Source: Bacilli bacterium (GTDB taxonomy: Bacteria; Bacillota_I; Bacilli_A; ML615J-28; CAG-698). From it: DNA of 64,000 bases. The position numbers and the translations under genes are program-made. The notes under the pieces were generated by a model. That model had not been told where the DNA came from. It did no database searches and saw only the letters and a program-made list of their open reading frames with translations. The first letter of the stretch is position 1. Each line of letters begins with the position of its first letter. The stretch spans positions 64,399-128,398 of the forward strand of contig JAQUZE010000003.1 in the NCBI GenBank assembly GCA_028691515.1, written 5' to 3'. This document shows positions 13,271-51,888 of the stretch, in pieces.

Positions 13271-13298
13271 ATATTTTTTAATTTCAAAAATAATGCTT

Positions 13299-13331: not shown

Positions 13332-14242
13332 TGTCTATGTAATAATAAAATCATTTCTCTCAAAATTTTACAAGCCACTGCTGTAGATGCACCGGACGCA
13401 TCATAATGTGGTGCTAATTCAACAATATCTGCCCCAACAATATTTTCTAATTTATCAAAATCTTGTACAGCTTCTAATAATTCCTTAAAGGTAATACCAC
13501 CAGGTTCTGGAGTTCCAGTCCCAGGAAAATATGCCGGATCCAAAACATCCAAATCAATCGTAATATATACAGGAACATCCTTTAATTTACCAATTGTTTC
13601 TTTTAAACCTACTAAATCAAATTTTCGAAGCTGAGTTTTTCCTTTGGACCATTCAAATTCTTCTCTATCTCCTGATCTAATCCCAAATTGAAATATTTTA
13701 TTATTACCAACTAAGTCATAACATCTTCTTAAAACTGTAGCATGAGATAATTTCATTCCAAAAAATTCATCTCTTAAATCAGTATGAGCATCCAGATGAA
13801 TAATATGAAGATTATTATACTTTTTAACTAAAGATCTAACTACTCCCAGACTTACAAGATGTTCTCCACCAATCATCATTGGTTTCTTATCATCATTGAT
13901 TATTTTTGTTGAAACTTGCTCAATAATTTTTAAACTTTTATTTACATCTCCTATTGGAAGATCAAGATCACCAATATCACAAGTATCAACATCTTTTAAA
14001 GACATATCAAAATACGGTGAATACCATTCTACACCAAATGAATCTACTCGAATAGCATTCCCAGCAAACCTAGTTCCTGGTCTAAATGAAGTTGTAGAAT
14101 CCATAGGACTACTAAAAATAACAACACTGCTATTTTTATAATTAGAAACGCAACTTTGAAATGGTATTTCTACTGTTTTATAAGTCATCCTCATCATACT
14201 CCTTACTCCAATTTTCTTGATCCACAACTTTAACTGTGTCAT
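13316..14242 (-). CDS. speB: Agmatinase (arginase/ureohydrolase family)
   Basis: HLDAHTDL and DLDVLDPAYFPGTGTPEPGG Mn-binding motifs. Its start overlaps speA. Confidence 0.85.
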   Translation of the reverse strand: MTQLKLWIKKIGVRSMMRMTYKTVEIPFQSCVSNYKNSSVVIFSSPMDSTTSFRPGTRFAGNAIRVDSFGVEWYSPYFDMSLKDVDTCDIGDLDLPIGDVNKSLKIIEQVSTKIINDDKKPMMIGGEHLVSLGVVRSLVKKYNNLHIIHLDAHTDLRDEFFGMKLSHATVLRRCYDLVGNNKIFQFGIRSGDREEFEWSKGKTQLRKFDLVGLKETIGKLKDVPVYITIDLDVLDPAYFPGTGTPEPGGITFKELLEAVQDFDKLENIVGADIVELAPHYDASGASTAVACKILREMILLLHRQKNDD

Positions 14243-15695: not shown

Positions 15696-15749
15696 TATAT
15701 ACTATTTTAAAAATAATACAACAATTTTAATTGAACAAAATTAACTAAT

Positions 15750-18218
15750 CTATTCAATAGCTTTCATTGAATCACTCATTTTAATACCCACAATTTTATA
15801 AAGCATAACTAAGTCAACCAAGATAACAATTGTTATAGTTGAAGCTATAGTTATCAAATAACTATAAATAGAAATAACTGAAGGAAATATCATTCCTGGA
15901 GAATTAGCAATCGATATTACAAATAGATGTAACAATTTACCAAGAACAAGACCAAAAGCTATACCCATTATTGATTGTATAATCATTTCTCTATAAATAT
16001 ATTTTGAAACTTCCCGGTTATGATAACCCAATACTTTTAATGTAGCAATTTCCTTTGTCCTTTCAGTAATACTAATATTAGTAAGATTATAAACTACTAT
16101 AATTGCTAAAACAATTGCGCCAGCAATTAAAATTACAACAACAAAACTCAATTTATCAATTAAGTTATCAAATAATTCCTTTGACTGATAATTAAAACTT
16201 ATATTATTAACAGAATCATAATCCAACAAATCTTCACTTAGACTATCATTTCCTTTAAATTCTTCTACTAATTTTATAATATAAGAAGAATTATGTAAAT
16301 CCGTTCCAAACACTTCTTTAAATTTCGTTCTCGTAAGGTATATATAATTGTTTAAATAATTATCAACTATTCCTGTTATTTTTAATTCATAATTATCTAT
16401 TCCATATTTAATTTCAACAATATCATTAATTTTTGATGAACTTACATTCGCTAATTGCTTAGTGATAATTACCGAATTATTATCTAATATTATATCTTTT
16501 TTTCCGTGTTTAATCGCAATGAATTCACTTAATAAATCTTTATCTTCATCTTCTATAACTATAAGGCCGAGAGAATACTCTGAGTTTTTAGTTAGAATTA
16601 CATTTGTTTTAAAGACAACTAAATAATTTTCAACAATAGTATTATCATTTAAAAATGCTTCTAATTCTCTATCTGGATTTTTCGTATTTAAACCTATAGT
16701 AAGGTCAAATTTTTCAATCTCTTCATATTGATTTTTAGTAACATTACTTAAAGAGTCTCCAAGCCCAAGCCCTGTTAAAAATAATGCACTACATCCTCCA
16801 ATTCCAATAATAACCATGAATAAAGACTTTTTATATCTAAAAACATTTCTTAGTGACGATTTCATATTAAATTTTAACCGCTTCCAGATAAAAGGTATTT
16901 TTTCTAAAAAAATTCTTTGACCAGGTTTTGGTGCTTTCTGAATGATTAACGTAGCAGTATTTGCTTTTAAAGTTGTTAATCCAGCAAATAATGTTGCTGA
17001 AAGAATTATTATAAACATTATTAAAGAAGAAAAAACAGTATATATCCAATTTAATTCTGTAATTAATTTTGGCAAATGATACATAGTCGCATAAGTATTA
17101 TAAATTAATTGTGGCAACGCTTGAAAACCTGTAAAAACCCCTATAATTGCACCAACTACACAAGCTGCAGATGAATATAAAAGATACTTAAAAATTATAC
17201 TCCCTCTACTATACCCCAAAGATTTCAATGTTCCGATTTGTGTTCTCTCTTCTTCTATCATTCTAGTCATAGTAGATAGAGCAACAAGTGCTGCAATTAA
17301 AAAGAAAAACAACGGAAAAACAGTTGCAATATCTGAAATTTTTCCAGAACTATTTTTCAAACTAACAAAACTAGCATTAGAATATCGATCTAGAATATAC
17401 CACATATTAGTAACTTCATCTATTTCTTGTTGAGATACTCCATAGTCTTTCATTTGATCAGTAACTTGATTTAATCTATCGATAGCCAAATCTTTCCCTA
17501 ATATAGAAAGTTTATCTTTTTCATTATTAATTAACTCTTTATAGTCATCTTTATAAGTATCAAAAGATTTGCCATTATTTATAGTTATATAAACATCAGT
17601 ATAATAACCAAAATCAAAATAACTAATATCAAAATACATAATTAAATTAAGTGTACCACTACCAACATTACTAAATTCTTTTTCATTAACATAATACCAA
17701 GGATTTCCAGCAATACCAACAACTGTATATTCTTTATCTCCATCATAAATTTTATCATTTATTTTAACATCAACGAAATAATTATTACTTCTTTCAACAA
17801 CAACTTCATTTTCAGTAGTTGGTAATTTCCCATCAATTAATTCAAGCTTTCCAATAAAAGAATTTTCTTCAAGAAAAGATAAGGGCAAATACTGAATTCT
17901 ACTAGTAGTTTTCTCAGAATTACAAAAAAGTATTTTATCAAATGAAACAAAAGGCATTATGTTTTCTGAATCAACAGAATTATTAATTTTAATAATATCT
18001 TCTTCAATAAAACCTAAATCGCTTTTCAACAAAATATCAGCAGTATTAGTGTCTTTATAATATTTATTCATAGTTAATCTAATATCCGGTGTTGTTGATA
18101 AAAGCCCGACCAAAAAAGCCACAGCTAATGCCACAATCGCTACAATGGAAAAAAATCTCGATAAATTATTCTTTATATCACGAAAAAGCATTTTAAAATA
18201 TGTCTTTTTCATTACCAC
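15750..18218 (-). CDS. ABC transporter permease, FtsX/MacB-like with two FtsX domains and a large extracytoplasmic loop
   Basis: 822 aa with multiple TM segments. Translationally coupled to the upstream ATPase. Confidence 0.75.
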   Translation of the reverse strand: MVMKKTYFKMLFRDIKNNLSRFFSIVAIVALAVAFLVGLLSTTPDIRLTMNKYYKDTNTADILLKSDLGFIEEDIIKINNSVDSENIMPFVSFDKILFCNSEKTTSRIQYLPLSFLEENSFIGKLELIDGKLPTTENEVVVERSNNYFVDVKINDKIYDGDKEYTVVGIAGNPWYYVNEKEFSNVGSGTLNLIMYFDISYFDFGYYTDVYITINNGKSFDTYKDDYKELINNEKDKLSILGKDLAIDRLNQVTDQMKDYGVSQQEIDEVTNMWYILDRYSNASFVSLKNSSGKISDIATVFPLFFFLIAALVALSTMTRMIEEERTQIGTLKSLGYSRGSIIFKYLLYSSAACVVGAIIGVFTGFQALPQLIYNTYATMYHLPKLITELNWIYTVFSSLIMFIIILSATLFAGLTTLKANTATLIIQKAPKPGQRIFLEKIPFIWKRLKFNMKSSLRNVFRYKKSLFMVIIGIGGCSALFLTGLGLGDSLSNVTKNQYEEIEKFDLTIGLNTKNPDRELEAFLNDNTIVENYLVVFKTNVILTKNSEYSLGLIVIEDEDKDLLSEFIAIKHGKKDIILDNNSVIITKQLANVSSSKINDIVEIKYGIDNYELKITGIVDNYLNNYIYLTRTKFKEVFGTDLHNSSYIIKLVEEFKGNDSLSEDLLDYDSVNNISFNYQSKELFDNLIDKLSFVVVILIAGAIVLAIIVVYNLTNISITERTKEIATLKVLGYHNREVSKYIYREMIIQSIMGIAFGLVLGKLLHLFVISIANSPGMIFPSVISIYSYLITIASTITIVILVDLVMLYKIVGIKMSDSMKAIE

Positions 18219-18919
18219 TCAATCTCCTCAACAGAAACAGGATTTTCCTGCACAGACATAGATGTAATTTTACCATTTTTAACATAAATAACTCTATCAG
18301 CCATTTTAGTAATAGCTTGATTATGTGTAATAATAATAACAGTTTTATTATTTAACCTACTTGCTTCTTTCAAAATTTTTAATATTCTTTTCCCAGTTTC
18401 ATAATCAAGAGCACCTGTAGGTTCATCACACAAAAGAATTTTTGGATTTTTTGCAAGTGCTCTTGCAATTGCAACTCTTTGTTGCTCTCCTCCAGATAAT
18501 TGCGATGGAAAATTCTTAGTTCTTTCACTTAAACCTAAATTTTCCAGTGTATCAAAAGGATTAAGTGGATCCCTACATATTTCAGAGGCAATTTCAACAT
18601 TTTCAATTGCTGTAAGGTTTGACATTAAATTATAAAACTGAAATATAAACCCAACATCATGACGTCGATAATTTGTTAATTCTTTTCTATTCATCCTAGA
18701 AATATTAACACCATCTAAATAAATATCACCAGAAGTACATGTATCCATGCCTCCAAGTAAATTCAAAATTGTAGTTTTGCCAGCACCACTAGGTCCACAA
18801 ATTACTACAAACTCACCCTCGTTAATACCAAAATCTACATCATTAACAGCATTAATAATAATTTCTCCAACTTTGTATTGTTTTTTTACATTCACTAATT
18901 TTACAAAGTCTTGCTTCAT
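18212..18919 (-). CDS. ABC transporter ATP-binding protein (MacB/LolD-like)
   Basis: Walker A GPSGAGKTT, signature LSGGEQQRVAIARAL, Walker B LLCDEPTGALD. Confidence 0.9.
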   Translation of the reverse strand: MKQDFVKLVNVKKQYKVGEIIINAVNDVDFGINEGEFVVICGPSGAGKTTILNLLGGMDTCTSGDIYLDGVNISRMNRKELTNYRRHDVGFIFQFYNLMSNLTAIENVEIASEICRDPLNPFDTLENLGLSERTKNFPSQLSGGEQQRVAIARALAKNPKILLCDEPTGALDYETGKRILKILKEASRLNNKTVIIITHNQAITKMADRVIYVKNGKITSMSVQENPVSVEEIEW

Positions 18920-18937
18920 GATTACCCCTCCAATCCT

Positions 18938-19513
18938 TTATATTTTTTCACAATTGATTTCTTTAATTTCTATTATATCTTCTTCATCTAATGCAATTGA
19001 CAAATAATAATTTTTATATTTATAAGTCCTTATAAAGCCATGATCAATATTCAAGAATTCGCTAAAAGAAATATTATTATTTACTAACTTATAATAACTT
19101 TCAAATTGATTCCATTTTTCTAATACTTGCTCTTTAGAATAACTATGTAAATTATATCTTTTTTTAAATCTACAAGATAAATCTCTTAACATTTCAATAT
19201 CAACTCCAACATTATGTTTAGAAACAGCACAACATGAATAGTTATTACTGTGTGAAAAACTAAATTTGTACTCGCACTTCTCAATAAATGGTTTTTTTTC
19301 ATCTAATGAAATATTTAATCTGTCAATATTGCCAACTTCATTTTCTAAATATTTTATAAGCAACAATTCACAACCGGCCATAAGTTTTTTATCAATATCA
19401 TTATGAAATAACGCTATCTTATCATAATGATATTTTGACAAAACATGAAGATGTTTTTTATAATCTAAATTTGTAATATCACATATTAAAATTGTTGTCA
19501 TAATTTTCCTCAC
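18938..19513 (-). CDS. 4'-phosphopantetheinyl transferase, Sfp/EntD superfamily
   Basis: 191 aa. FSFSHSNNYSCCAVSKHNVGVDIE matches the PPTase motif (FN.SHS...G.DIE). Confidence 0.65.
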   Translation of the reverse strand: MRKIMTTILICDITNLDYKKHLHVLSKYHYDKIALFHNDIDKKLMAGCELLLIKYLENEVGNIDRLNISLDEKKPFIEKCEYKFSFSHSNNYSCCAVSKHNVGVDIEMLRDLSCRFKKRYNLHSYSKEQVLEKWNQFESYYKLVNNNISFSEFLNIDHGFIRTYKYKNYYLSIALDEEDIIEIKEINCEKI

Positions 19514-19582
19514 ACATTTTTATATTTGTTTCTATACCTTATTTTAACAACTTTTAATTAAATTGCAATGAACAAATAATTA

Positions 19583-19608
19583 AAAAAGGATTCTTATAGA
19601 ATCCTTTT
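19583..19608 (-). terminator. Rho-independent terminator downstream of the pit operon
   Basis: aaaaaggattcttatagaatccttt. Confidence 0.55.
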
Positions 19609-20227
19609 ATAAATTATTAAGATAAGCAGTTTCAAAAGCTATAGAAGCTTCCCCGCATGCATCACAACAATTTTCTAATCTATTATATAAATCACTCCAA
19701 ATTAAAAGCTTAGCAGCATCTTGTTCATTAACAAACAAATCTCTTAATGACTCTGAATAAAGAACATCACATTCTCTTTCATATTCTAAAACTTTTTCAA
19801 TCAAAATATGAATATTTTTAGATCTTTTTAAAAGATGAAACTCAACAGCAAGCTCTTTTAATGCTTTACAGCACAATCTAATCAATTCTGTATATTTAGG
19901 CAGACTACTCGGTATAATTTTTACATTATAAGTATATAATCTTAAAACAACATCTTCAATTGCATCTGTCACATCATCAATTTCTCTAATAATATTTAGA
20001 ATATCATCTCTATTAATAGGTGGTAAAAATTCTTTTACTAATCTTTCTAACACATCATGTTTTGCTATATCAGCTTGATGCTCAATTACATGGATTTCAT
20101 CTTTTTGTTCAACTGAAATCCCAGAATTAAAATTATCAACAACATAGTCTAAATAATCTGCAGCTTTTTCTGAATATTCAATTAGCTCAATAAACGCATC
20201 AAAATAATAGTTTTTAGTTTTTTTCAT
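19607..20227 (-). CDS. DUF47 family protein (PhoU-like phosphate transport regulator associated with PiT)
   Basis: 206 aa helical protein immediately downstream of the PiT transporter. Classic pairing. Confidence 0.7.
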   Translation of the reverse strand: MKKTKNYYFDAFIELIEYSEKAADYLDYVVDNFNSGISVEQKDEIHVIEHQADIAKHDVLERLVKEFLPPINRDDILNIIREIDDVTDAIEDVVLRLYTYNVKIIPSSLPKYTELIRLCCKALKELAVEFHLLKRSKNIHILIEKVLEYERECDVLYSESLRDLFVNEQDAAKLLIWSDLYNRLENCCDACGEASIAFETAYLNNL

Positions 20228-20237
20228 ATTATACCCC

Positions 20238-21284
20238 TTAAATTATTGCTATAAATAGTTTAGCCATAAAAAATCCAATAATTCCACAGCCAGGAAATGT
20301 TAATATCCATGTAAGAACCATATCTCTAACAATATCCCATCTTACACCTGACAATTTTCTTGCAGCACCAACTCCCATAATAGCTGTTGACTTTACATGA
20401 GTAGTACTAACAGGAATACCAAATAATGTACTAAATAATATACAAGATGATGCAGCAACATCTGTTGCAAAGCCTTGATATTCTTCTAATTTAACCATAT
20501 CCATACCAACAGTTTTAATAATTCGATACCCGCCTATAGAAGTACCTAAAGCCATAACAGCCGAACACAAAACCATCAACCATAAAGGTATAGAAAATTC
20601 TCCAATATCAGAAACACCTTTTGAAAGAAAAGCTCCTAATAAAAAAACTCCTATAAATTTTTGTCCATCTTGTGCTCCATGCACAAAGGCCATACCAGCA
20701 CCACCAAAAATTTGCCCTTTTCTAAAAAACTTTGTTGTTTTCCGCCTATCAAATTTCTTAAAAATGATTTCAATTAATTTAACCAAACCATATCCAAGAC
20801 CAAATCCAAGAAATGTGGAAATTAATAAACCATAAACTACTTTCATCCATTCAGAGCCATTGATACCACTTAGCCCACCTTGAAGAGCAATTGCTGCACC
20901 ACTAATACCAGCAATTAATGCATGACTCTCACTTGTTGGAATTCCAAAAACCCAAGCTAATGTAGCCCAAAGAACAATGCTAACCATAGCAGCACAAAGT
21001 GCAGCTAAAGCATATGTTGCATCACCCCCAAAATCTACCATATTTGCAATCGTAAATGCAACTTTGTTATTTATAAGAGACATTAATAAAACACCTAAAA
21101 AGTTAAAAACAGCAGCCATTGCAATAGCCTTTTTAGGGCTAATTGCCCTTGTTGAAACACAAGTAGCAATAGCATTAGGTGCATCAGTCCAACCATTAAT
21201 CAACACAACTAATAAAGTCAAAATTGATGTAATCAATAGAAAATAATTACTTGACAACTCACTTAAGTATTCAGTAAAACCCAT
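20238..21284 (-). CDS. pit: Inorganic phosphate transporter, PiT family
   Basis: 348 aa polytopic protein with duplicated GANDV-like PHO4 motifs (NGWTDAPNAIAT; VHGAQDGQK). Confidence 0.8.
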   Translation of the reverse strand: MGFTEYLSELSSNYFLLITSILTLLVVLINGWTDAPNAIATCVSTRAISPKKAIAMAAVFNFLGVLLMSLINNKVAFTIANMVDFGGDATYALAALCAAMVSIVLWATLAWVFGIPTSESHALIAGISGAAIALQGGLSGINGSEWMKVVYGLLISTFLGFGLGYGLVKLIEIIFKKFDRRKTTKFFRKGQIFGGAGMAFVHGAQDGQKFIGVFLLGAFLSKGVSDIGEFSIPLWLMVLCSAVMALGTSIGGYRIIKTVGMDMVKLEEYQGFATDVAASSCILFSTLFGIPVSTTHVKSTAIMGVGAARKLSGVRWDIVRDMVLTWILTFPGCGIIGFFMAKLFIAII

Positions 21285-21380
21285 AATTTCCCCTTTGATT
21301 TTTTTTCACTACCTATTAAGTATATCATTTACTATTTTATTTGTAAACGTTATGTATAAAAGAAAACGTTATATATAATA

Positions 21381-41692: not shown

Positions 41693-42358
41693 TTAAAAGA
41701 ATTTTGCTCTTGCTTGTTCTTTTGTCTCTCTAGATGCAGTAAAAGGAATTCTTGTTGTTACGCCAGCTCTTGCTGCAACAATCATTTTAGTTGGCCATCT
41801 AAAAATATCTGTGTTCCATTTTAATACTGTATCATTATATACTTCTCTAGCAGCAGTAATTTCTCTTTGTAAATAAGAATTTTGTTGCATAGCATCTGCA
41901 AGTGTTTCATGAGCCTTTAAATCCGGATAAGCTTCAAAAGCTACATTAATACTACGCATTGCTTGATCAATTTCATTTGCAACTTGATTACGATTAGTAT
42001 CATCAGGATGAACTCCTCCACGATAAGCCGCAACAGTTTTCATTACATCTTTGTCTAAATCGATGCTTTTTTCAACAATACCTACAGCATTTTGTAAAAT
42101 TTGAACTCTTTGTTCAAGATAATTATCGATTTGTGATGCATTATGTTGAACACGTTGTTCTAATTGTCTCAAATAATTTCTCGCGCTAATCTTCATAAAT
42201 AAGAAAATAACACCAGGAATGATTCCTAAAACCCATAACATTACCTCAAATAAAGTTGATCCCCAACCTATTTTTACAGGTAATTGTTTTTCAATAACAT
42301 TAATGTCGCGTCCTTCTTTATTTACTGGACCCTTTAATTCATCTAATTCGTTTCCCAT
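41693..42358 (-). CDS. LemA family protein
   Basis: N-terminal TM segment. LemA motifs (YLRQLEQRVQHNASQID...EAYPDLKAHETL...AREVYNDTVLKWNTDIFRWP). Codon and GC usage noticeably richer than neighbouring genes. Confidence 0.75.
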   Translation of the reverse strand: MGNELDELKGPVNKEGRDINVIEKQLPVKIGWGSTLFEVMLWVLGIIPGVIFLFMKISARNYLRQLEQRVQHNASQIDNYLEQRVQILQNAVGIVEKSIDLDKDVMKTVAAYRGGVHPDDTNRNQVANEIDQAMRSINVAFEAYPDLKAHETLADAMQQNSYLQREITAAREVYNDTVLKWNTDIFRWPTKMIVAARAGVTTRIPFTASRETKEQARAKFF

Positions 42359-42386
42359 TTTTTTCTCCTTTTCTATTTATATTATA

Positions 42387-44216
42387 TTATTTCTTTTGTT
42401 TTTTTGCAAGATAAACAATAAATGGTCCTATTTTAACCATATCATCTTTAGTAATCTGTCTATCTTTAAATTCTTCAAAGATGGCTCTGATTTTATCATT
42501 ATAAGATTCTGCTTTTTTATCTTCAACAACATTTATATCAATATCTGTATCCTGTGAAACAGGAATGTACTCAACCCAATGAACGGGAATTGTATGTAAT
42601 TTCCCATCATTACCCATTTTATTAATATAATCAATTCTATTAATCATATCATAACCATATGCAGTTACTTTGACTGTGTCACAATAATCACCGCTTTTAA
42701 CAGTTGATGTTTTTAAAATATTTCTTGTTTTTGAAAGAGGATGTTTAAACTCTCTTTCATTCATCAAGTTAGCTAATTGTTCATGTTCATAAAATGAAAC
42801 ATAACTATTATATTTATCTTTATAAATATACTCATGTGGTTTTTGATGTTGATAAAGTGGAATTGATAAAATCGGCGCAAACCCAAAATAAATATATTTA
42901 AAAAAATTATTATTATAATCCAAAAACTTCTTTTCTGTTTCATCAATATTATAATCTCTAAAATATTCAGGATTAATATTTAAATCTATATTTTTAAGGT
43001 GTTCTGGTAATACAATATTAATCATATTATGTTTTTTAAAATCAAAATTATCTCCAAAACCAATTACTTTATCTTTCATCAACTGTAAAAGTTGTTTCTG
43101 AGCTAATGCAGTAAATAACAATCTAAATTGAACTTCATTGTTTCTATTACTGCCCCCAAATAAAACTTCAAATTCAGTATTACCCATTAATGTATAATTA
43201 TCACCAAATTTTAACCCTTTTTCTGCCTTTTTTTGTAATTTTTTTGTTGTCTTTTTAACATGACGTTCTATTTGTTTTTCTTCCATATGTTCTGCATCTG
43301 AATCTTCTCTAGAAAATATCAAATCTGGAGCTGCTTCATTAGCATAAACAATATATGGAGATTCATAATAATAAGGACATGGTTTAGTTACTTCAGCAGT
43401 TAATGTTTGCGTATGATGCCTTGTAGTTAATTGGCCCTTTGAATTTGTACCCACAGTTGTCCAATGAATAGTAATAGAACCAGTATATGTTTTAGTCCCT
43501 AATTGATGCACTAAATCCCTAGCAATATAAAAAGGATTACCATTAATATCTCCAGATTGAACATACAAAGCTGATCTATTTAAATCTGGTGTATCATCTA
43601 ATTTAAATTTATTTACCATATAATCTAATCTTTTACTATCAAACATTCTATCAAGCTTAATCAAAGGGATAGTCTTTTTAAAAATAGAAGTACTCATTCC
43701 ATATGTAAACAATTTATTTAATGGCTCCATCTGGCTCCACGCTAAATCTAAGGTTTCTTTATATTCTTGATCTAGTTTTCCTTTTTCATCGCTAAGTCTA
43801 AGTAACTTCGGATTTAACTTTTTTAAAATAATAAATAAGAAAACGGGAAATGAAATAGCACTAATTCCTATTAATATAGCCTGAATATAATGAAATCCTT
43901 TGCTTACCCATAAATAAATTGATACTCCAAACAAAATTACAAAGATTACCATTAAAAATATCAAAAAACCTTTTAAAAATTTATTATTATTAATCTTTTT
44001 CTGAACTGAATTTCTTCTTTTATCCAAAGACACTAATTCTTTATTTGCAAGTCTGTTTGCTTCTTTATCTAATTTTGACTTTTTAACCAATTCTTCAAAA
44101 AAATCAACAACATTTTTGTGATGTTCTTTTTTAAAAATTTTATCATATGCAATCAGTGGCTCATAAATAAACTCACCATCATATAAATTTTCAGGCATAA
44201 TATCCCTCTTTTCCAA
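42387..44216 (-). CDS. Large membrane-anchored hypothetical protein (2 TM near the N-terminus). Possible LemA-associated partner.
   Basis: 609 aa, no confidently recognised domain. Immediately upstream of LemA in the same orientation. Confidence 0.45.
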   Translation of the reverse strand: MEKRDIMPENLYDGEFIYEPLIAYDKIFKKEHHKNVVDFFEELVKKSKLDKEANRLANKELVSLDKRRNSVQKKINNNKFLKGFLIFLMVIFVILFGVSIYLWVSKGFHYIQAILIGISAISFPVFLFIILKKLNPKLLRLSDEKGKLDQEYKETLDLAWSQMEPLNKLFTYGMSTSIFKKTIPLIKLDRMFDSKRLDYMVNKFKLDDTPDLNRSALYVQSGDINGNPFYIARDLVHQLGTKTYTGSITIHWTTVGTNSKGQLTTRHHTQTLTAEVTKPCPYYYESPYIVYANEAAPDLIFSREDSDAEHMEEKQIERHVKKTTKKLQKKAEKGLKFGDNYTLMGNTEFEVLFGGSNRNNEVQFRLLFTALAQKQLLQLMKDKVIGFGDNFDFKKHNMINIVLPEHLKNIDLNINPEYFRDYNIDETEKKFLDYNNNFFKYIYFGFAPILSIPLYQHQKPHEYIYKDKYNSYVSFYEHEQLANLMNEREFKHPLSKTRNILKTSTVKSGDYCDTVKVTAYGYDMINRIDYINKMGNDGKLHTIPVHWVEYIPVSQDTDIDINVVEDKKAESYNDKIRAIFEEFKDRQITKDDMVKIGPFIVYLAKKQKK

Positions 44217-44313: not shown

Positions 44314-45013
44314 TTATTTTTTAAATATTATTTGATTTTTACCATTTTGCTTTGCTTTATATAACATACTATCTGCTAAATGAACAAATTCTGTAATTGA
44401 TTCCTTATTAAATTGACTAACTCCACCACTAATTGTAATTTTTAATCCATCAACAAAATTATTTGCTTCAATTGCTTTTCTAATTCGCTCAGATATTTTA
44501 TAAGCAACAGATAATTTAGTATTAGGAAAAATTATCATAAATTCATCGCCACCATATCGACCAACATAATCAGTTTCTCTAATATTTTTTTTCATCAGTA
44601 AAGCAACATCAACAAGAACTTGATCTCCATATATATGACCTTTAAGATCATTTACTTTTATTAAGTGTAAGAATAATCCTAGAAGATAAATTGTAATACC
44701 CAACAAACTTATTATTTATCCATAATTTACATTGTCTATTAAAATTATCAAATGATAATATATATTCGTCTTTATTTTTTACATTTATTTCAAACCAATA
44801 ATAATTAATACATAATTTCCCTGCTGGATTGCGATTAACTATAGCAATATGTTTGTTATAGTCATATTGATAGTTAAAATTTAAATTGAAATCTTTGATT
44901 GGTTTATCAAACATTACAATGTAATCATTTTTATCTATGTAAAGCGGTTCTTTTTTACAAGCTTTTGTTATATATAAGTTTTTTTTCAATATATAATTCA
45001 TATTCTTATTCAC
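44314..45013 (-). pseudogene. GGDEF-domain diguanylate cyclase with a novel ~100-aa N-terminal domain, split by a frameshift into two overlapping ORFs (44648..45013 and 44314..44706)
   Basis: Downstream ORF begins mid-domain (…HLIKVNDLKGHIYGDQVL…RYGGDEFMIIF). Upstream ORF ends in the region expected to carry the TGLxNRR-like motif. The two ORFs overlap by 59 nt in different frames. Confidence 0.55.
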
Positions 45014-45207
45014 CTAAAAACTTTATTTGTATTCTCAACAATACATTTTAAAAAATCGGTCATCTTCTCATAAAGGAAAACCTTAGTTTTTAAAACGACA
45101 TTCAGAGAGATTTAACCGATTACCACACATTATTTTTCAACTACATTAAAATTAATTTGTTTGTATTATGGATTTTTTTCTTCACAAACAAATTATTATA
45201 TTATGTT

Positions 45208-45852
45208 TTACCCACCAGTTTCTTTCTTTTTTTGATTTTGAAGAGCAATCTTTTCTTGTCGATTCATTTCATTCTTATATTTTTTTTCAATATTAAGTGC
45301 TATTCCTAGTGTTATAAAAGCAAACAGTATGATAGTCACTATACTTAAACCTGTTTTTGAATAATCATTTAAATAAAAAATCATTATATAAAAAGGAAAT
45401 AATGTTATATAACAAATTATAGATCCTACATTATTAACTTTTTTCCAGACTTCATCATATTCTAAAGCTAATGGTGTCTTTACCCCGAAAAACGAATTTT
45501 TCTTCATAATTGGCATGGTAATGGCATGGAAGATTTCGAGTAATAGAAATATTGCAGGAAAAATACTTTTCATCGATGTATTACTATTTAAAAAAATAGG
45601 ATTAATCAAATAATATACCATACCATTAACAATAGATAAAACATATAATATAAATAAGATGCGAGATCTGAAACTTGTGAACAAAAGAATACATAAGTAC
45701 ACGATACTCAAGATAACACTTATTAAACCGAGAATATTAAAATAAATTATTTGTAATATGCCGGTTATTATTATATTTGATGTTAATATGTAGTCATGAT
45801 TTTTAAGCTTCATTAATAAATAGCCTCTCTTTCTTACATTATTAATAACCAA
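45208..45852 (-). CDS. SdpI/YhfL-family polytopic membrane protein (immunity/signal-transduction-like)
   Basis: 6 predicted TM segments. Motif FGVKTPLALEYDEVWKKVNNVG resembles the SdpI family GxRTPwTL...W signature. Confidence 0.5.
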   Translation of the reverse strand: MVINNVRKRGYLLMKLKNHDYILTSNIIITGILQIIYFNILGLISVILSIVYLCILLFTSFRSRILFILYVLSIVNGMVYYLINPIFLNSNTSMKSIFPAIFLLLEIFHAITMPIMKKNSFFGVKTPLALEYDEVWKKVNNVGSIICYITLFPFYIMIFYLNDYSKTGLSIVTIILFAFITLGIALNIEKKYKNEMNRQEKIALQNQKKKETGG

Positions 45853-45918
45853 TACTATATATTGATTTTACTTTATTGATACTAAAACTCTCTAAAAGTA
45901 TATTTCCTGCTTAATATA

Positions 45919-47256
45919 TTATATTAGTTTTTTAAATCTTTGACTGTTTGCTTTCATTTTATCATATAATTCTAAATACTTGATTTGAATTGTATCGAAT
46001 CTTTCCTTAATTTTAATCAAATAATTTTCATCATCTTTGAAAATATAACGAGCATATAATAATTTACACAGCTCAATATTTTGTAGAATACAATTAATTA
46101 TTTCTATCAAATCAGATAATTTTAAAAATTCTACTTGCCTTTTTTGTATTAAACAAAAATCATACAAAAATAGAAAAATATCTATACAGTCATAATTTCT
46201 TCTTTCAATTTTAATTTTTTTGCAGATTTCAATAATATTTTTTGATAAATAATTAATAGCCCCTATATTCTTTAATTCATTATTTTGATCAAAAAATTCT
46301 AAAAAGTTAGAATACACGTTTTCTTTTTTTATTTTATTATTAAATGGAATTTTAGTAATATATGAAAATGGAAGACCCCAACTAGAAAATTTTATTTCGG
46401 TTTCTCTTTTTTTAGGTTCTTTTACTATTTTAATTTTTACATTTTTAATAGCTCTTCCTACTGATTCATTGCTTATGTTTTTTATTTCTCGTTGAGACGA
46501 AACCCGCGGACCTGCTTCAGTTAATCCATAGCATAAAAATATATTCACATTGTTCCATATTTTTCTATAATAATTTATAGGTTTAATTATTTTTGAACCA
46601 CTAACATAAACTTTTTTTAAGAATTCCATTTTTATGTCCATTAATAAAATTGATTCAGTAAATTGATCAAACACAATTGGATTTAATCCAATAATGGTCG
46701 CTTTTGAATTAATTAATTGGTTTATATACAACCTAGGAGAATAGGACGATTTTAAAATGATAATTTTCATTTTAGATTTTAATCCAACTAATAATTCTCC
46801 AACAACAGTGGAAGAATGGCAACAAGACTTTATAATAGCAATTTTATCGTCTTTTGTAGGCCTCATATAATCAATAATAAAATCGGCATTTTTATTTATA
46901 GCCTTGTGAGATAATACTATTGCTTTTCTCTTTGCACTAGTTCCTGACGAAAACAAAATAAGCCCTTCTTTTTTTGAATAAGACTCTTCAAAATTGTTTT
47001 GTATACTGTCCGGAAGTAAAGTTTCTTCACTTTCGTCGTATATTATACATTCCCATTTTTTAAAATATGAAGAGAAACTATCAAATATATTTCTTGAAAC
47101 TACTACTTTTCTTACAGAAACATAAACTAATTGTTCTACTATTTCTGTAATAGGTAATCTGCTATCTATTAGAACAGCACAATTACCTTCATTCCAAATA
47201 TCTATTAAATTTTGAACATATTCAACTGAGTTCTTTCCTATTAAGCCAATTCTCAC
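45919..47256 (-). CDS. Atypical adenylate-forming (ANL/AMP-binding superfamily) enzyme with a non-canonical C-terminal region. GTG start with RBS.
   Basis: Degenerate A3 motif LFSSGTSAKRKAIVLSHKAI and A5 motif CYGLTEAGP. The C-terminal 150 aa are not alignable by eye to the canonical A8-A10 subdomain. Start codon is GTG (plus-strand cac at 47254-47256) preceded by taaggatc. Confidence 0.55.
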   Translation of the reverse strand: MRIGLIGKNSVEYVQNLIDIWNEGNCAVLIDSRLPITEIVEQLVYVSVRKVVVSRNIFDSFSSYFKKWECIIYDESEETLLPDSIQNNFEESYSKKEGLILFSSGTSAKRKAIVLSHKAINKNADFIIDYMRPTKDDKIAIIKSCCHSSTVVGELLVGLKSKMKIIILKSSYSPRLYINQLINSKATIIGLNPIVFDQFTESILLMDIKMEFLKKVYVSGSKIIKPINYYRKIWNNVNIFLCYGLTEAGPRVSSQREIKNISNESVGRAIKNVKIKIVKEPKKRETEIKFSSWGLPFSYITKIPFNNKIKKENVYSNFLEFFDQNNELKNIGAINYLSKNIIEICKKIKIERRNYDCIDIFLFLYDFCLIQKRQVEFLKLSDLIEIINCILQNIELCKLLYARYIFKDDENYLIKIKERFDTIQIKYLELYDKMKANSQRFKKLI

Positions 47257-47288
47257 GATCCTTACACCTTACAAACGCTTTCACAATC

Positions 47289-47317
47289 ATTTTATTATTT
47301 TTTCCTTTTTTTGTCAA
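47289..47317 (-). promoter_or_regulatory. Sigma-A-like promoter for the adenylate-forming enzyme gene: TTGACA-N17-TAAAAT
   Basis: Minus-strand sequence tttgacaaaaaaaggaaaaaataataaaatgattgtg, ~45 nt upstream of the GTG start. Confidence 0.4.
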
Positions 47318-47847
47318 ACAACTTTTTATAATTAATTTGATAAATGAAATTTAACAAGCTGAAATATTTCTGCATTTTTCTACTAATACCACTTCACTGT
47401 TATTAAATCGAAAAGACTATTAGTTCCTTAAATTAAACTAATAATCTTTTTAATGTTTTTAAGCTAACTAACTTTTCGAAGTAGTAACCTTAAGTAAACA
47501 CTTTTTAATAAGATTTTCCAAATCAGACATAGTTCTAAGTCTAGCGCTTCGTCACAACCGCAACTATCGATACTATACTATAAATATTTAGACTTGAATC
47601 AGATTATCAAATCTAAATAGATTTGATGAACATAAAATATTATTAATTTATACTTCTTACGAATATAAGTTGTATATTTTTATTGACTTCTAACATTCGT
47701 GGGCAACATATATCTTTTTATTTATATTTAACATAATATTAATTGTACCACATCTTGCATTACTAATAAACATTATCATCTTATTAAATGTCCTCTGGCG
47801 GTGGTAAATGGGGGGGATAAGAGCTCCCTAAATACGATGCTAAAATA

Positions 47848-47877
47848 ATAAATAGGACCGACCTTGGCCCTATTTAT
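47848..47877 (-). terminator. Terminator-like hairpin (9-bp stem ATAAATAGG/CCTATTTAT, GC-rich 12-nt loop) downstream of the ABC exporter pair
   Basis: ataaataggaccgaccttggccctatttat, followed by a T-rich tract on the minus strand. Confidence 0.5.
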
Positions 47878-47923
47878 TATATCTGCTTAAATAACAAGTT
47901 ACTTAAAACAACCCATTAACTGT

Positions 47924-49759
47924 TTACGATTTGTAATACTCTCCTTGAGTTGTAAACATTTTATGATATAAACCACCCTTATTATTCATTAAGTCTTTAT
48001 GAGTTCCTTCTTCCACTATACTTGAACCATCAAGTACAAATATTCGATCAGAGAAAATACAACTAGATAATCGATGTGAAATAAAGATTGTGAGCTTTTC
48101 GCCGACGATATCTTTAAAATTATAATAAATTTCAGCTTCGGCCATTGGATCCAAATTACTTGTGGGTTCATCTAAGACAACAAAGTCAGCATCTTTATAC
48201 AAACATCTAGCCAGAGCAAACTTTTGCATTTCTCCACCACTAAATTCAACCCCAGTCCTATCAAACCATTTATTAATATAAGTATTTTCCTTTTTGGGTA
48301 GACTTAATACTTTTTCTAATACTTGAGCCCTTTTCAAACAATCATATAACTTATCTTGATTTTCATCGAGAATAGCAACATTTGATTTAATACTAAATGA
48401 GATAATTTTGAAATCTTGAAAAACAATAGCCATTAATTTCATATAGTCTTCATATTTGTAATTATTTATATTGATGCCATTTACTAAAATCTCACCTTCA
48501 TCGATCGCATAAAAACGACATATTAGTTTAATTATGGTCGTTTTACCTGACCCATTTAAACCAACTAAAGATACTTTTTCTTTGCTATCAATTTTAAAAT
48601 CTAGATTCTTAATAATAAAATTATCAGTTCTTGGGTATTTAAATGATACATTTTTAAATTCCAAAGTTTTAAACTCAGAAATAGGAAGCGTACCATCAGC
48701 GAAGATCGATTGTTTTTCCATAATGTTGATAAACTCTTCTTGATAAGCACAGTCTTGCACATAGGTTCTTGTTGAATAAACTAAATTTACCATAGAACTG
48801 TCAAAAGTATTTATTGATTGATAAAGCATTGTAAAAACAGCAATCGTCATATTTTTATCATAAACAGCATAAGCCAATAAAATTAATGTAATAAGTCTAG
48901 TCACTAAATGTGTTACAAATGTATCCATTCCGTCCCATAACTTTTTCTTTTTTGCGATTCTATTATACTCACTATATGCTTCCTTTATCTCTTTTTCACC
49001 AGCATCACTAATCATTTTTTTTGCTTGATATAAACGCAAATCTTTTTGTAATCTAAAACTGGTAATTCCGTCATTATAATACCAAAGTCTTCGAGAGTGA
49101 CGAACCCAATTATGATTAAAGTTTTTATCTAGTTTCTGAATTTTACTGTAGTTAAAGGCACTTATCATGACACCGACTAAGGAGACCAAAATAACAAGAT
49201 ATTCTTTTGATAATAAAACAATACCAATTACTCCTAAAAGGGTAATCACTGAAGATATAAGATCTTGAAGCGTATAAATAAACGAATAGATACCATTGCT
49301 ATATCTATTCATCCCTTCTTTTGCTCGTTTTATTTGATCTGCAAATTGGGGATCTTCAATATTAAAATAGTCAACCTTCATAATCTTTTTACTAAACATA
49401 TCTTCAATCGCAAAATCAGCTTTTGAAGCATTAATGTAATTTAGACCTTGAATAAAATTTTGAATAGATCGAGTAAGAAAATTTGATAAGGCTAGTGCTA
49501 AAACTAGCATAGCTAAAACTTTAATATCTTTACTTCCCATTAACTCTTCAATTATAAATTTTGGAATCAATATCCATAGTAATCTACCCACCGAACTTAA
49601 CAATGCACTAAGAATTGTATTTACAACAATCCACGGATTAAGGCGAAATAACATTGGAATAAAGAACTCTAAATTTCTCTTAATTATTTTGAGTTTCTTC
49701 ATTAGTTGCCTCCTTATAATAGTTCGATTGCATCGAAAACATCTTTTTATATTCTCCAT
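47924..49759 (-). CDS. ABC exporter, fused permease/ATP-binding protein (heterodimer subunit 2)
   Basis: 611 aa. 6-TM N-domain plus NBD (Walker A GLNGSGKTT, signature FSGGEMQKFALAR, Walker B VVLDEPTS). Confidence 0.85.
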   Translation of the reverse strand: MENIKRCFRCNRTIIRRQLMKKLKIIKRNLEFFIPMLFRLNPWIVVNTILSALLSSVGRLLWILIPKFIIEELMGSKDIKVLAMLVLALALSNFLTRSIQNFIQGLNYINASKADFAIEDMFSKKIMKVDYFNIEDPQFADQIKRAKEGMNRYSNGIYSFIYTLQDLISSVITLLGVIGIVLLSKEYLVILVSLVGVMISAFNYSKIQKLDKNFNHNWVRHSRRLWYYNDGITSFRLQKDLRLYQAKKMISDAGEKEIKEAYSEYNRIAKKKKLWDGMDTFVTHLVTRLITLILLAYAVYDKNMTIAVFTMLYQSINTFDSSMVNLVYSTRTYVQDCAYQEEFINIMEKQSIFADGTLPISEFKTLEFKNVSFKYPRTDNFIIKNLDFKIDSKEKVSLVGLNGSGKTTIIKLICRFYAIDEGEILVNGININNYKYEDYMKLMAIVFQDFKIISFSIKSNVAILDENQDKLYDCLKRAQVLEKVLSLPKKENTYINKWFDRTGVEFSGGEMQKFALARCLYKDADFVVLDEPTSNLDPMAEAEIYYNFKDIVGEKLTIFISHRLSSCIFSDRIFVLDGSSIVEEGTHKDLMNNKGGLYHKMFTTQGEYYKS

Positions 49760-51488
49760 CTCGTTCCATTAATTCATGGTGGGTTCCTGTTTCGATAATC
49801 TTACCCTCATTTATAAAGATAATACGATCACAAAATTTAGTTGATGATAATCTGTGAGAGATAAAAATAGCCGTGTTACCTCTAATAATATCATTAAAAC
49901 TCCGATACATATGAACTTCATTTAAAGCGTCCATGGCGCTAGTAGGTTCATCTAGAACATACAAAGGAGCATTCTTATACATAGCCCTAGCTAGGGCTAC
50001 TAGTTGGGTTTCACCACCAGATAATTCAATGGCTGTTTCGTCCAATTCTCTTGTAATATGGGTTTTAATCTTATTGGGCAATGATTCAACCTTTTTATTA
50101 AGTTCAATTAGTTTTACAATGTCAGCAACCTTTTCATAGTCAACATTCTCAGTTGTAGCCATAGCTATGTTTTCTGCTATCTCGAGCGCATACATGATAT
50201 TTTCTTGAAAAACAAGCGAGATAAGTTTTTGTAAACTTTCCCTCTCTAAAGTTTCAATATCAATACCGTTTATAAGAATCTGCCCCTTTGTTGGATGATA
50301 TAGCCCGCCTAGTAATTTCACAAGTGTCGTTTTACCAGCGCCATTATATCCAACTAAAGCAATCTTTTCACCCTTTTTTATCTTAAATGAAACATCCTCT
50401 AAAGCATATCCCTCTTGCATGTAATAACTATAATAGACATTCTTAAATTCTACTTCGATATGATCGGCTTCTATTGTTTGATTTTCTTGTTCTCTAACAT
50501 ATTCAATACTCATAAAATTACGATAATCTTTTGTTTCCAAACTATTTCTTAAGACATGGGCATTTTGCCTTATAACAATATGCAAAGCATTAGTTAATGT
50601 ATAAACACTTGATACCATAAAAGTAAAAGTAGCAATTTTCATATCGTTATAGATAACTTCATAAATCATAAATCCATATAAAAGCAATGTGTCAAAGAAA
50701 GTTATAAAATTAATTAAAATACTATTAATAATCGTTTTCTTTCTATTCTTAATAGCAATTTTAAGATATTCTCCGGTCGCATCATTTCTTTCTTGGCTAA
50801 TAAACTCATCCATAGCATAAATTCTTAAATCCTTGCCAATTGTTAAAGTAGATGCTATGTTATTTGTATATCCAATCCTCCGCCACATTGGTGGTGTTTT
50901 GTCATAAAATTCATGTTTTTCTCGTTTTTGATTTTTATTTTCGAATAATACCTTGAAAAGTGCAAGAACAAGAATGGCAATAATTAAGAGCCAATTTACA
51001 CTAATAACGATTGCTGATGCAATAATAAACATTAAAAAATGTTCAATAAGCATAAAGCCATTGTTAACTAACCCCATTACCCCATTCCAAGCATTAATTC
51101 TTCTTGTTGCTTTTTCAGCAGCATCTTGGGTTTCTGGTCTTTCTAATAATTCATAATCCATTTCAAGAGTCCGAATACTCTTTTGTTGTTTAAGAATTGT
51201 TGCTATTCTATCACTCTTATACCAAAACGTTTGATCTAGCATTTTTCTGCCAAATGAGATTAGAAATGCAATACCAGAAACGATTAATACATCCCTAATA
51301 AAAATCTCAATTGGTTTATTCTGCTCAATCGCTGATACGGCTACTCTAATTACATATGCATAAGCAAATGAATTTACTGAACTCAATATTGCATACAAAA
51401 TCTTTTGATAGATAAATAACTTATCAATGCTAGCAACCTCTTTAACAGCATAAATGAACTCTTTTACGATATGCGCCTTTTCTTCCAA
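49680..51488 (-). CDS. ABC exporter, fused permease/ATP-binding protein (heterodimer subunit 1). TTG start with strong GGAGG RBS.
   Basis: 602 aa. Walker A GYNGAGKTT, signature LSGGETQLVALARAM, Walker B YVLDEPTSAMD. Confidence 0.85.
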   Translation of the reverse strand: MEEKAHIVKEFIYAVKEVASIDKLFIYQKILYAILSSVNSFAYAYVIRVAVSAIEQNKPIEIFIRDVLIVSGIAFLISFGRKMLDQTFWYKSDRIATILKQQKSIRTLEMDYELLERPETQDAAEKATRRINAWNGVMGLVNNGFMLIEHFLMFIIASAIVISVNWLLIIAILVLALFKVLFENKNQKREKHEFYDKTPPMWRRIGYTNNIASTLTIGKDLRIYAMDEFISQERNDATGEYLKIAIKNRKKTIINSILINFITFFDTLLLYGFMIYEVIYNDMKIATFTFMVSSVYTLTNALHIVIRQNAHVLRNSLETKDYRNFMSIEYVREQENQTIEADHIEVEFKNVYYSYYMQEGYALEDVSFKIKKGEKIALVGYNGAGKTTLVKLLGGLYHPTKGQILINGIDIETLERESLQKLISLVFQENIMYALEIAENIAMATTENVDYEKVADIVKLIELNKKVESLPNKIKTHITRELDETAIELSGGETQLVALARAMYKNAPLYVLDEPTSAMDALNEVHMYRSFNDIIRGNTAIFISHRLSSTKFCDRIIFINEGKIIETGTHHELMERDGEYKKMFSMQSNYYKEATNEETQNN

Positions 51489-51888
51489 AGTTAATCCTCC
51501 ACATCTTTTTCTTTCTTCAATAATTTCTCATTTCTATCAATTCTATCTTCCAATAGATTGAACGACCAATTAAAAGTTTTTTCTTTCTTAGTTTATAAAA
51601 GTACCTCCTATCATACAATTTCTTTATTTATAAAAAGCTATTTCTCTTTTTTATAAGATAATGGTTTAATTATAATCATCTTATATAGCAATTTATTGTA
51701 AATTCTTCTTTTTGTTAAGTATATCAATTCTGTTTTTTGAAGTCAATATATAAAGGGTATTCGCTTGGCAATGATTGGTTGCATCCGTACTTCTTGAGAC
51801 AACTCCATTACTTATCGCCCTGCGGAGAAGTAGTACTGCTACAAATATAAAAAGAACCAACCATTACCGATCAGTTCCAATCTTTTGA

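Follow-up and report, generated by a model that had tools for sequence, protein, structure and literature searches.

A probable deletion-scarred relic of a natural-product gene cluster in an uncultured Bacilli bacterium

Orphan immunity genes and decayed bacteriocin or other biosynthetic gene cluster (BGC) loci are known, for example the streptococcal blp loci and the immunity genes of type VI secretion systems (T6SS) and colicins. We describe here a locus at positions 44314–47692 of a 64,000-nucleotide stretch of DNA from an uncultured "Bacilli bacterium"; the whole stretch is called the window below. The locus holds an open reading frame (ORF) made of parts of an adenylase gene and a transacylase gene, a gene for an SdpI-like membrane protein, and fragments of an esterase-like gene and a GGDEF gene, and it adjoins a pair of ATP-binding cassette (ABC) exporter genes. 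The reference system for its chemistry is closthioamide biosynthesis in Ruminiclostridium cellulolyticum, whose kit consists of the adenylase CtaI, the carrier proteins CtaH and CtaE, the papain-like ligase CtaG and the phosphopantetheinyl transferase CtaK: CtaI loads an acid onto CtaH, from which CtaG passes it to an amine that a second carrier protein bears (PMC7183216). Other described systems that resemble parts of the locus are SdpI and SdpC of Bacillus subtilis, radical S-adenosylmethionine (SAM) systems that mature ribosomally synthesized peptides with post-translational modifications (RiPPs) with the help of a RiPP recognition element (RRE), and heterodimeric type-I exporters.

We consider it probable, at about 0.85, that 44314–47692 is a deletion-scarred relic of a natural-product cluster of ~13–15 kb lying in a strain-variable hotspot. 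The comparison uses L001, a contig that carries the intact adenylase P0002 in an intact locus and is 96% identical in DNA to the window, together with L109 and L110, which were recovered by a DNA pattern scan and extend the distal end of that locus. The features are as follows.

47668–47692, no strand: left boundary of the strain-variable region, shared by all strains at higher coordinates and differing at lower ones
47317–47289, minus strand: promoter TTGACA-17-TAAAAT of the first cluster gene, matching the consensus at 11 of 12 positions
46417–47256, minus strand: 5′ fragment of a gene for a predicted stand-alone, carrier-protein-loading adenylase, ~280 codons with motifs A1–A5, from homology to P0002
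46417–46424, minus strand: deletion junction 1, an 8-nt microhomology TAAAAGAA that forms codons K-E in both parent genes
45919–46416, minus strand: 3′ fragment of the gene for a predicted 320-aa CtaG/BtrH-fold transacylase, ~165 codons, from homology to P0003
45208–45852, minus strand: SdpI-like membrane protein, 201 aa from ATG 45813 or 214 aa from TTG 45852, PF13630
44648–45013, minus strand: 5′ fragment (~121 codons) of a 782-aa esterase-like cluster gene, matching L001 10372–10739
44645–44650, minus strand: deletion junction 2, ambiguous over ~5 nt, GTAAAT/GATCT
44314–44649 (ORF 44314–44706), minus strand: 3′ fragment (111 codons) of a ~180-aa stand-alone GGDEF gene, from the GGDEF profile

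Two deletion junctions in the window

The minus-strand ORF at 45919–47256 encodes 445 residues, and its AMP-binding match (E 1.3e-21) covers residues 2–285 alone, corresponding to profile positions 48–363 of 384. Homology between the window and the intact locus begins at 47336, and blastn aligns window 47336–46401 with L001 2217–3150 and window 46424–44645 with L001 8959–10739. At junction 1 the window therefore lacks 5,832 bp relative to L001, where six genes separate the two parents. Residues 1–282 of the chimera are 96% identical to the intact P0002 (430 aa), while its C-terminus is 100% identical to the last ~165 residues of P0003, a 320-aa protein with no Pfam domain. A three-way alignment places the fusion between adenylase codon ~280 and transacylase codon ~155, and because the two genes read TAAAAGAA in one frame, as K-E, the reading frame is kept across the fusion. 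Contigs of six JGI metagenomes and separate assemblies in ENA and NCBI span the junction at 99.8–100% identity, and the identical junction also occurs in Logan assemblies; in every contig found, the chimeric frame stays open and its protein is 100% identical. The native promoter and ribosome-binding site (RBS) are kept, the promoter at 47289–47317 being conserved in L001 and L014; the start codon is GTG in the window versus ATG in L001.

Neither parental enzyme is complete in this ORF. Motifs A3 and A5 (the latter YGLTEAGP) mark an ANL-type N-terminal adenylation domain. The intact P0002 continues to align with 4-coumarate-CoA ligase through A6, A7 and A8 (GEIVV, NTGD, GRKD, NGKK); the chimera lacks A6–A10, including the C-terminal subdomain with the A10 lysine. 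The transacylase part, from residue ~155 on, comprises the last part of the N-domain together with the helical bundle of the C-terminus, and the catalytic cysteine at the N-terminus of helix 1 is missing, the region around the invariant Cys20 having been deleted. Lacking both A6–A10 and the cysteine domain, the chimera is predicted to perform neither parental reaction, and its sequence is best read as that of a pseudogene whose frame has stayed open by chance. An earlier interpretation of the same DNA (the sequence-only reading) had described this ORF as an adenylate-forming enzyme with A3 and A5, an odd C-terminus and its own promoter. The motifs, the odd C-terminus and the promoter, which is kept in relatives, all hold; the single enzyme does not, as the ORF consists of two fragments fused in frame.

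The second junction lies downstream of the SdpI-like gene. The stub at 44648–45013 is 76–99% identical to L001, L005 and L109. L109 and L110 are 99.5% identical to the window up to junction 2 and then continue as the full 782-aa gene. As far as AAAAGTAAAT the window agrees fully with L001, L005 and L006; it then switches to GGDEF sequence, and the TGA that ends ORF 44648–45013 is created by the junction itself. Junction 2 is also present in L013, L098, L099, L103 and L104. On the far side, the GGDEF fragment covers profile positions 44–161 of 161 only; it has the RYGGDEF signature, and its relatives are stand-alone proteins of 159–194 aa, compared with which ~70 residues are missing from its N-terminus, among them the FDIDDFK strand that carries the metal-binding Asp (DxDxFK). 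What had been taken for a frameshifted GGDEF gene is thus really two unrelated gene fragments joined at 44645–44650. Deletion 2 removed the distal cluster genes, namely the rest of the 782-aa gene, a 73-aa carrier-like protein, the cluster ABC exporter and a phosphopantetheinyl transferase. The right-hand parent of this junction was not found at high identity.

Deletion 1, of 5,832 bp across TAAAAGAA, fused the adenylase to the transacylase and removed the intervening cluster genes; deletion 2 fused the esterase-like gene at codon ~121 to a point midway in a stand-alone GGDEF gene unrelated to it. Public annotation pipelines (NCBI and JGI) give the 445-aa ORF the name "acyl-CoA synthetase" and the GGDEF fragment that of "GGDEF domain protein". 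The two are scars of fusion, and a genome-mining tool would miss or mis-score the locus.

The intact cluster in relatives and its predicted chemistry

L001 and L109 together give the order of the intact cluster: the adenylase, a 247-aa protein with a weak PqqD-like segment, a 90-aa carrier protein, a 465-aa HemK-like methyltransferase, a 64-aa small ORF, a 341-aa radical SAM enzyme, a 384-aa PaaK/CapK-like ligase, the CtaG/BtrH-fold transacylase, the SdpI-like protein, the 782-aa esterase-like protein, a 73-aa carrier-like protein, a single-gene ABC exporter and an Sfp-type phosphopantetheinyl transferase (ACPS E 9e-15). The 5,832-bp segment absent from the window holds the C-terminal third of the adenylase, the genes from the PqqD-like protein to the PaaK-like ligase, and the first ~154 codons of the 320-aa gene. 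The exporter is orthologous among L001, L111, L112 and L113. In L109 (2450–4213) and L110, which come from separate metagenome assemblies, its gene has two in-frame TGA stops, at the first of which L001 has Leu (TTA); these stops are further evidence of cluster decay in the lineage. The organism uses genetic code 11, with Trp encoded by TGG and in-frame TGA absent from large genes.

A distant relative, L112, has the order carrier protein, methyltransferase (33% identity), a 63-aa ORF, radical SAM enzyme (45%), PaaK-like ligase (37%), P0003 homologue (29%), ABC exporter, SdpI-like protein (30%) and adenylase (37%). Furthermore, ~70 adenylase homologues are 430–450 aa long with the C-terminal domain present, and 13 of 13 representatives of the P0003 transacylase family measure 308–326 aa. 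Given these homologue lengths and the gene order of L112, we conclude that the long arrangement is ancestral and that the difference is a deletion in the window, not an insertion in the relatives.

Among adenylase loci of at least 31% identity, 16 of 24 have a PaaK-like ligase and 16 of 24 a full-length ABC exporter within 10 kb; the corresponding numbers for distant homologues are 1 of 55 and 2 of 55. Such neighbourhoods support the view that the adenylase is a biosynthetic enzyme. The sequence-only reading had allowed that the adjacency would be coincidental if the adenylase homologues were stand-alone fatty-acyl-CoA ligases and the SdpI motif were missing. Neither is the case, as the adenylase neighbourhoods just described and the presence of an SdpI-like gene in the distant, syntenic L112 indicate. 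A search of GTDB species representatives found no close adenylase relative (best 42% identity), and the N-terminus of the L001 ABC protein, used as query, gave no homologue at E ≤ 1e-20.

The structure of the 320-aa protein was predicted using AlphaFold. With an alignment of 13 sequences the model had a pLDDT (predicted local distance difference test) of 88; the single-sequence run gave pLDDT 38 and was unusable. The former model confidently shows an N-terminal α/β domain and a C-terminal helical bundle. For the fold comparison we used the published architecture and mechanism of CtaG (PMC12865890, PMC7183216). The modelled protein has the bipartite architecture of CtaG/BtrH/CcbD-like papain-fold transacylases, and the corresponding activity is predicted. 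Cys20 is invariant in the 13-member family. The histidine expected for a Cys-His-Asp triad (HNYN) is found in 9 of 13 members and is replaced by Ser in P0003 and L001. The family is rare, with 13 representatives among 1.84 billion protein clusters. No sequence homology of the family to CtaG was detected, and there is no Pfam match; one member reaches BtrH_N at E 0.08. A 320-aa protein of L029 was considered as a further member and rejected, since hhalign found it not to be homologous.

The other enzymes point to a peptide substrate, given the radical SAM enzyme, the methyltransferase, the PqqD-like protein, the PaaK-like ligase and the conserved small ORF. The 64-aa ORF of L001, which encodes an Ala/Val/Ile-rich peptide, has a GGAGGG Shine–Dalgarno (SD) sequence, a local GC peak of 35% versus 25%, and a 19-bp hairpin with a T-run downstream. 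A 63-aa ORF occupies the same position in L112, with a weak match to it (34% identity over 32 aa; pairwise E 0.003). In L029 the enzymes are present and no small ORF is evident at the corresponding position. The 247-aa protein of L001 matches WgkC-type PqqD at E 1.2e-4, far below the cut-off, and its L029 orthologue is borderline for PF05402 at 23.2 bits versus a cut-off of 23.4. The radical SAM enzyme of the intact relatives has its best matches among peptide maturases and enzymes like NirJ; it shows no evident SPASM or twitch motif, because its C-terminal region has only two Cys. The 90-aa carrier protein matches TIGR04069 weakly (E 1.4e-3).

On this basis the ancestral adenylase would load an acid onto the carrier protein, and the papain-fold transacylase would pass the acid to an amine. 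The small Ala/Val/Ile-rich peptide would be processed by the radical SAM enzyme, the methyltransferase and the PqqD-like protein, and then exported. By analogy, the ancestral pathway may be a hybrid of closthioamide-type thiotemplated assembly, independent of nonribosomal peptide synthetases (NRPS), with peptide maturation. We found no described cluster of this composition in the literature. The candidate precursor lies in the deleted DNA, as the 64-aa ORF of the relative, not in the 660-bp gap between the ABC pair and the chimera, whose small ORFs (20–31 codons) are without support and, as had been noted, unconvincing as precursors. It likewise holds that the window encodes no carrier protein, NRPS or polyketide synthase (PKS).

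Two side observations concern related clusters. L009 (ENA ERZ28599764 scaffold_25, 9487–21310) carries the closest adenylase outgroup, P0004 (41%), near MobL/TraG conjugation genes. Its cluster, on a conjugative element, comprises a nitroreductase, the adenylase, a carrier protein, a B12-radical SAM enzyme, a 60-aa ORF, a PP-loop ATPase, a methyltransferase, a NifU-like protein, an AAA ATPase, a radical SAM enzyme, a CapK-like ligase and a cysteine desulfurase; this apparent sulfur-transfer set recalls thioamide (closthioamide-like) chemistry. In addition, LytTR-type response regulators flank L111 (6577–8619) and L029 (6932–7654), with a HATPase_c_5 histidine kinase beside the regulator in L111, which by analogy suggests Agr-like quorum-sensing control of this type of cluster.

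The SdpI-like gene, the hotspot and the neighbouring exporter operon

The SdpI-like gene is the only cluster gene left intact in the window. The protein scores 35.5 bits against PF13630 (gathering cut-off 28.2) and has ~six hydrophobic segments, as the sequence-only reading had proposed. The ORF is without indel or stop in all 18 contigs covering it. Calls of 99 or 121 aa in some metagenome-assembled genomes (MAGs) were considered as signs of decay and rejected as gene-caller artefacts, the DNA being 100% identical to the window. The L112 homologue (30% identity, E 1e-10) reaches 28.6 bits against PF13630, and L111 holds an alignable counterpart of 205 aa. As will be seen below, other loci lack such a gene, and the link between SdpI-like protein and cluster is based on L001, L112 and the alignable L111 protein.

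In the window the gene stands behind the native promoter and the translated chimeric ORF, which ends 66 nt upstream. Both deletions end short of it, one on each side, and two independent left-hand truncations (the chimera, and a DegV′-′PaaK fusion at L001 7510) both keep it. We found no SdpR-type repressor and no SdpC-type toxin operon among the neighbours in the window, L001, L109 and L112. By analogy, the protein may serve the cluster as membrane-level self-protection or as an export accessory. Directly after its stop codon is an AT-rich hairpin with an 11-bp stem (AATTTGTTTGT...ACAAACAAATT; window 45150–45195), which coincides with 45190, the switch point between two alternative right-hand flanks.

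The hotspot is bounded on the left by the interval listed above. L097 and L101 match the window only down to 47692, and L014 matches from 47668 on; L098 and L102 have a ~40-bp insertion at 47683–47686, and the metagenome contigs L015 and L016 break at 47657. To the right of this boundary the window-type allele consists of the chimera and the SdpI-like gene. At the same site L097 (12300–20311) and L101 (13797–14143) carry a DNA methylase, a split HpaII-type restriction gene, a 769-aa protein, DUF2971 and a CoiA-like nuclease, and nothing from the cluster. From its gene content the site behaves like a defence or cargo island. In L014 the chimera unit lies between a DUF4365 gene and a GIY-YIG nuclease gene, and in L003, L004, L005, L007 and L008 the independent truncation is seen, in which the PaaK-like gene is fused at L001 7510 to a DegV fragment. 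All four combinations of the two left-hand truncations with the two right flanks (the 782-aa gene or the GIY-YIG gene) occur, and we therefore conclude that there has been recombination around a shared core consisting of the transacylase 3′ half and the SdpI-like gene. Terminal repeats, direct or inverted, that would mark 45190–47690 as a mobile cassette were looked for, and the search gave AT-rich chance matches only.

The exporter genes beyond the boundary belong to a separate operon.

51746–51718, minus strand: promoter-like TTGACT-17-TATACT, ~230 nt upstream of the first exporter gene
49680–51488, minus strand: ABC exporter half-transporter 1 (ABC1), 602 aa, transmembrane domain (TMD) plus nucleotide-binding domain (NBD), ABC_tran E 6e-34, MsbA-like over its full length
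47924–49759, minus strand: ABC exporter half-transporter 2 (ABC2), 611 aa as the longest ORF, 592 aa from 49702 according to gene callers, ABC_tran E 2e-26
47845–47880, minus strand: intrinsic terminator of the operon, a 15-bp stem followed by UUUU, also inverted repeat I18

Both proteins match MsbA-, CydCD- and HlyB-type models over their full length, the ABC_membrane match of ABC2 being weak, and both fall below every equivalog or specific family cut-off. The two genes overlap, each encodes a TMD and an NBD, and the Walker A, signature, Walker B and H-loop motifs read from the translations are canonical, so that ABC1 and ABC2 are of the heterodimeric type-I exporter kind, the heterodimer itself being predicted. 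The two full-length half-transporters and the TTG start of ABC1 with its strong GGAGG RBS are as the sequence-only reading had them. So is the terminator, which folds at −25.6 kcal/mol in its 91-nt context (z = −5.1, with 0 of 200 shuffles folding as well). The pair has the same left flank in all strain variants, including those with restriction-modification cargo beside it. It is a self-contained promoter-to-terminator operon on a conserved chromosomal flank. Because it is kept when the adjoining island holds a restriction-modification system, we assign it to the chromosomal backbone and not to the cluster as its exporter; it is only 28–34% identical to exporters within related clusters and is not an orthologue of the cluster's own exporter. 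The ~230-nt leader of the operon (51488–51746) contains AGGAGG followed, near 51600–51625, by an 8-codon mini-ORF (ATG ATA GGA GGT ACT TTT ATA AAC TAA), which may be a regulatory leader peptide or an attenuator.

The window has a GC content of ~27% and nearly all its genes on the minus strand, among them all five ORFs that had been grouped together. By identical protein matches it belongs with MAGs of uncultured "Bacilli bacterium". No tRNAs were found in the window, an Rfam scan of the whole of it gave zero matches at gathering thresholds, and a permissive scan of the 660-bp gap gave a chance match only (E 0.8). Next to the locus, at 41693–44216, a 609-aa protein of the MAG1210 family (NCBIfam NF046000, E 1e-210) adjoins a LemA-family protein. 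Pairing of MAG1210 and LemA is typical of Mycoplasma-like genomes, and this neighbour, by its family, hints that the uncultured "Bacilli bacterium" is a Mollicutes-like host.

Alternative explanations and comparison with known systems

The five genes might instead form a working unit in which the odd adenylating enzyme, with a novel C-terminal domain, modifies a peptide or small molecule, the ABC heterodimer exports it and the SdpI-like protein confers immunity. They do lie on one strand, and each of them has promoter-like and RBS signals; many assemblies have the chimeric ORF open and identical; and related clusters do pair this adenylase family with ABC exporters. We nevertheless regard such a unit as highly improbable. 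The C-terminus of the ORF matches the distal half of a distinct 320-aa gene at 100% identity, with an 8-nt microhomology at the join; adenylation motifs A6–A10 and the C-terminal subdomain are missing; and the window is without carrier protein, precursor and tailoring enzyme. In addition, the ABC operon is closed by a strong terminator and stays beside restriction-modification cargo in other strains, and the intact cluster has its own, different exporter. The proposal of a modification, export and immunity system is borne out for the ancestor, as represented by the intact relatives, and fails for the window copy, whose enzymes are truncated or deleted. Overall, the sequence-only reading is partly supported: largely accurate in its observations, wrong on two gene identities, and right on ancestry but wrong on present function. 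That the in-frame fusion has gained a new role, such as regulation or scaffolding through the adenylase N-domain and the transacylase helical domain, is very unlikely. It would account for a fusion that is in frame, open and 100% identical in protein in all contigs found, with native promoter and RBS kept. An in-frame outcome, however, has a prior probability of one in three, and the open frame is uninformative on selection because all copies are near-identical in DNA; moreover, the start codon is weakened from ATG to GTG and both catalytic cores are incomplete. An explanation by artefacts of metagenome assembly or binning, with chimeric contigs of mixed strains, would fit the strain variability of the locus and the several short contigs that break exactly at 47657, 45190 and 46395. 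It is scarcely credible in view of the contigs that span junction 1 at 99.8–100%, from six JGI metagenomes and separate ENA/NCBI MAG assemblies, and of the five that span junction 2.

Within the relic reading, the harder choice concerns the SdpI-like gene. It may merely not yet have been hit, in a region of neutral debris. The lineage is decaying, with two deletions here and two nonsense codons in the L109/L110 exporter gene, and the hotspot turns over, being wholly replaced by restriction-modification cargo in L097 and L101. Against neutrality, the gene is intact in 18 of 18 contigs, across two left truncations and two right flanks; both window deletions stop short of it, one on each side; and the native promoter is kept, with the upstream fusion in frame, avoiding polarity. 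We give neutral debris something less than an even chance, and retention through selection rather than by accident about the same. If the gene is retained in function, the window strain would be a non-producer in which the native promoter, by way of the in-frame fusion and its translation, still drives expression of the SdpI-like protein; the relic in the window makes no product, and its bearer is possibly an immune non-producer.

Several results weigh against the relic of a natural-product cluster with a retained protection gene. No SdpI-like gene was found within 10 kb in any of 24 related adenylase loci of other taxa. The dN/dS (ratio of nonsynonymous to synonymous substitution rates) between window and L001 is 0.2–0.5 in all four segments; with 11–24 substitutions in each, too few for the purpose, it does not separate the intact SdpI-like gene from the dead fragments. 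That the gene is still transcribed is a prediction from the intact promoter, RBS and ORF alone. The A3 motif of this lineage is SSGTSAKRKA (window 46930–46960; L001 2296–3588) versus SSGTTGKAKG in 12 of 13 aligned relatives, so that two glycines conserved in the family are Ala even in the "intact" L001 adenylase. The P0003/L001 transacylase (L001 8502–9464) contains no histidine at all. The search for the full-length parent of the GGDEF fragment gave a best match of 74% identity, and the chemistry of the ancestral product is predicted throughout.

A bolder proposal, which we hold to be doubtful, is that L001+L109 and L112 represent an undescribed hybrid, with thiotemplated acylation or extension of a ribosomal 63–64-aa peptide, peptide maturation and dedicated SdpI-like immunity, and that the window strain is an immune non-producing "cheater" among producers in anaerobic-digester and landfill communities. 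The intact cluster of the relatives, which lies outside the window, is in any case the more interesting object: it appears to be of a rarely seen type that joins thiotemplated and radical SAM/peptide logic, and it could merit expression.

Among described systems, closthioamide biosynthesis resembles the ancestral locus in that L001+L109 has a stand-alone acetyl-CoA-synthetase-like adenylase beside a small carrier protein, a second carrier-like protein and an Sfp-type phosphopantetheinyl transferase; the sister cluster L009 adds the PP-loop ATPase, NifU and cysteine desulfurase. It differs in that the ancestral locus lacks an ATP-grasp ligase and a decarboxylase and instead carries a radical SAM enzyme, a HemK-like methyltransferase, a PqqD-like protein, a PaaK-like ligase and the conserved 63–64-aa ORF; the transacylase of this lineage is without the triad His, and the window keeps non-catalytic fragments only. 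Radical SAM/RRE RiPP systems, including Haft's "peptide maturation system acyl carrier-related protein" (TIGR04069), share with the relatives the radical SAM enzyme and, as candidates for the recognition element and the precursor, the borderline PqqD-like segment and a small ORF with strong SD, GC peak and hairpin whose position is kept in L001 and L112. The family matches of the relatives are, however, far below curated cut-offs, and none of this kit is in the window.

The SdpI-like protein, like SdpI of B. subtilis, is a ~200-aa polytopic membrane protein above the PF13630 cut-off, in a locus that probably made an exported product. Here there is neither an SdpR-type repressor nor a set of sdpABC-like toxin genes nearby, and the locus with which it is partnered is of the thiotemplated/radical SAM kind rather than one for a secreted protein toxin. 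The two overlapping TMD-NBD genes of the window, with their canonical motifs, resemble heterodimeric type-I (MsbA/BmrCD-like) exporters, differing in that the pair reaches no specific family cut-off and has no C39 peptidase domain.

There is also a likeness to the orphan-immunity and decayed loci mentioned at the outset: producer and non-producer alleles at one chromosomal site, with biosynthetic genes deleted and a putative protection gene kept. The difference is that the protective role of the SdpI-like gene is here read from the genes alone. The locus is in this sense nothing out of the ordinary in kind: a gene cluster in decay at a variable hotspot, described in unusual detail. A single hotspot in an uncultured Mollicutes-like bacterium presents a natural series of intact cluster, two independent truncations and complete replacement, and a putative protection gene kept throughout is what the coexistence of producers with immune non-producers would lead one to expect.

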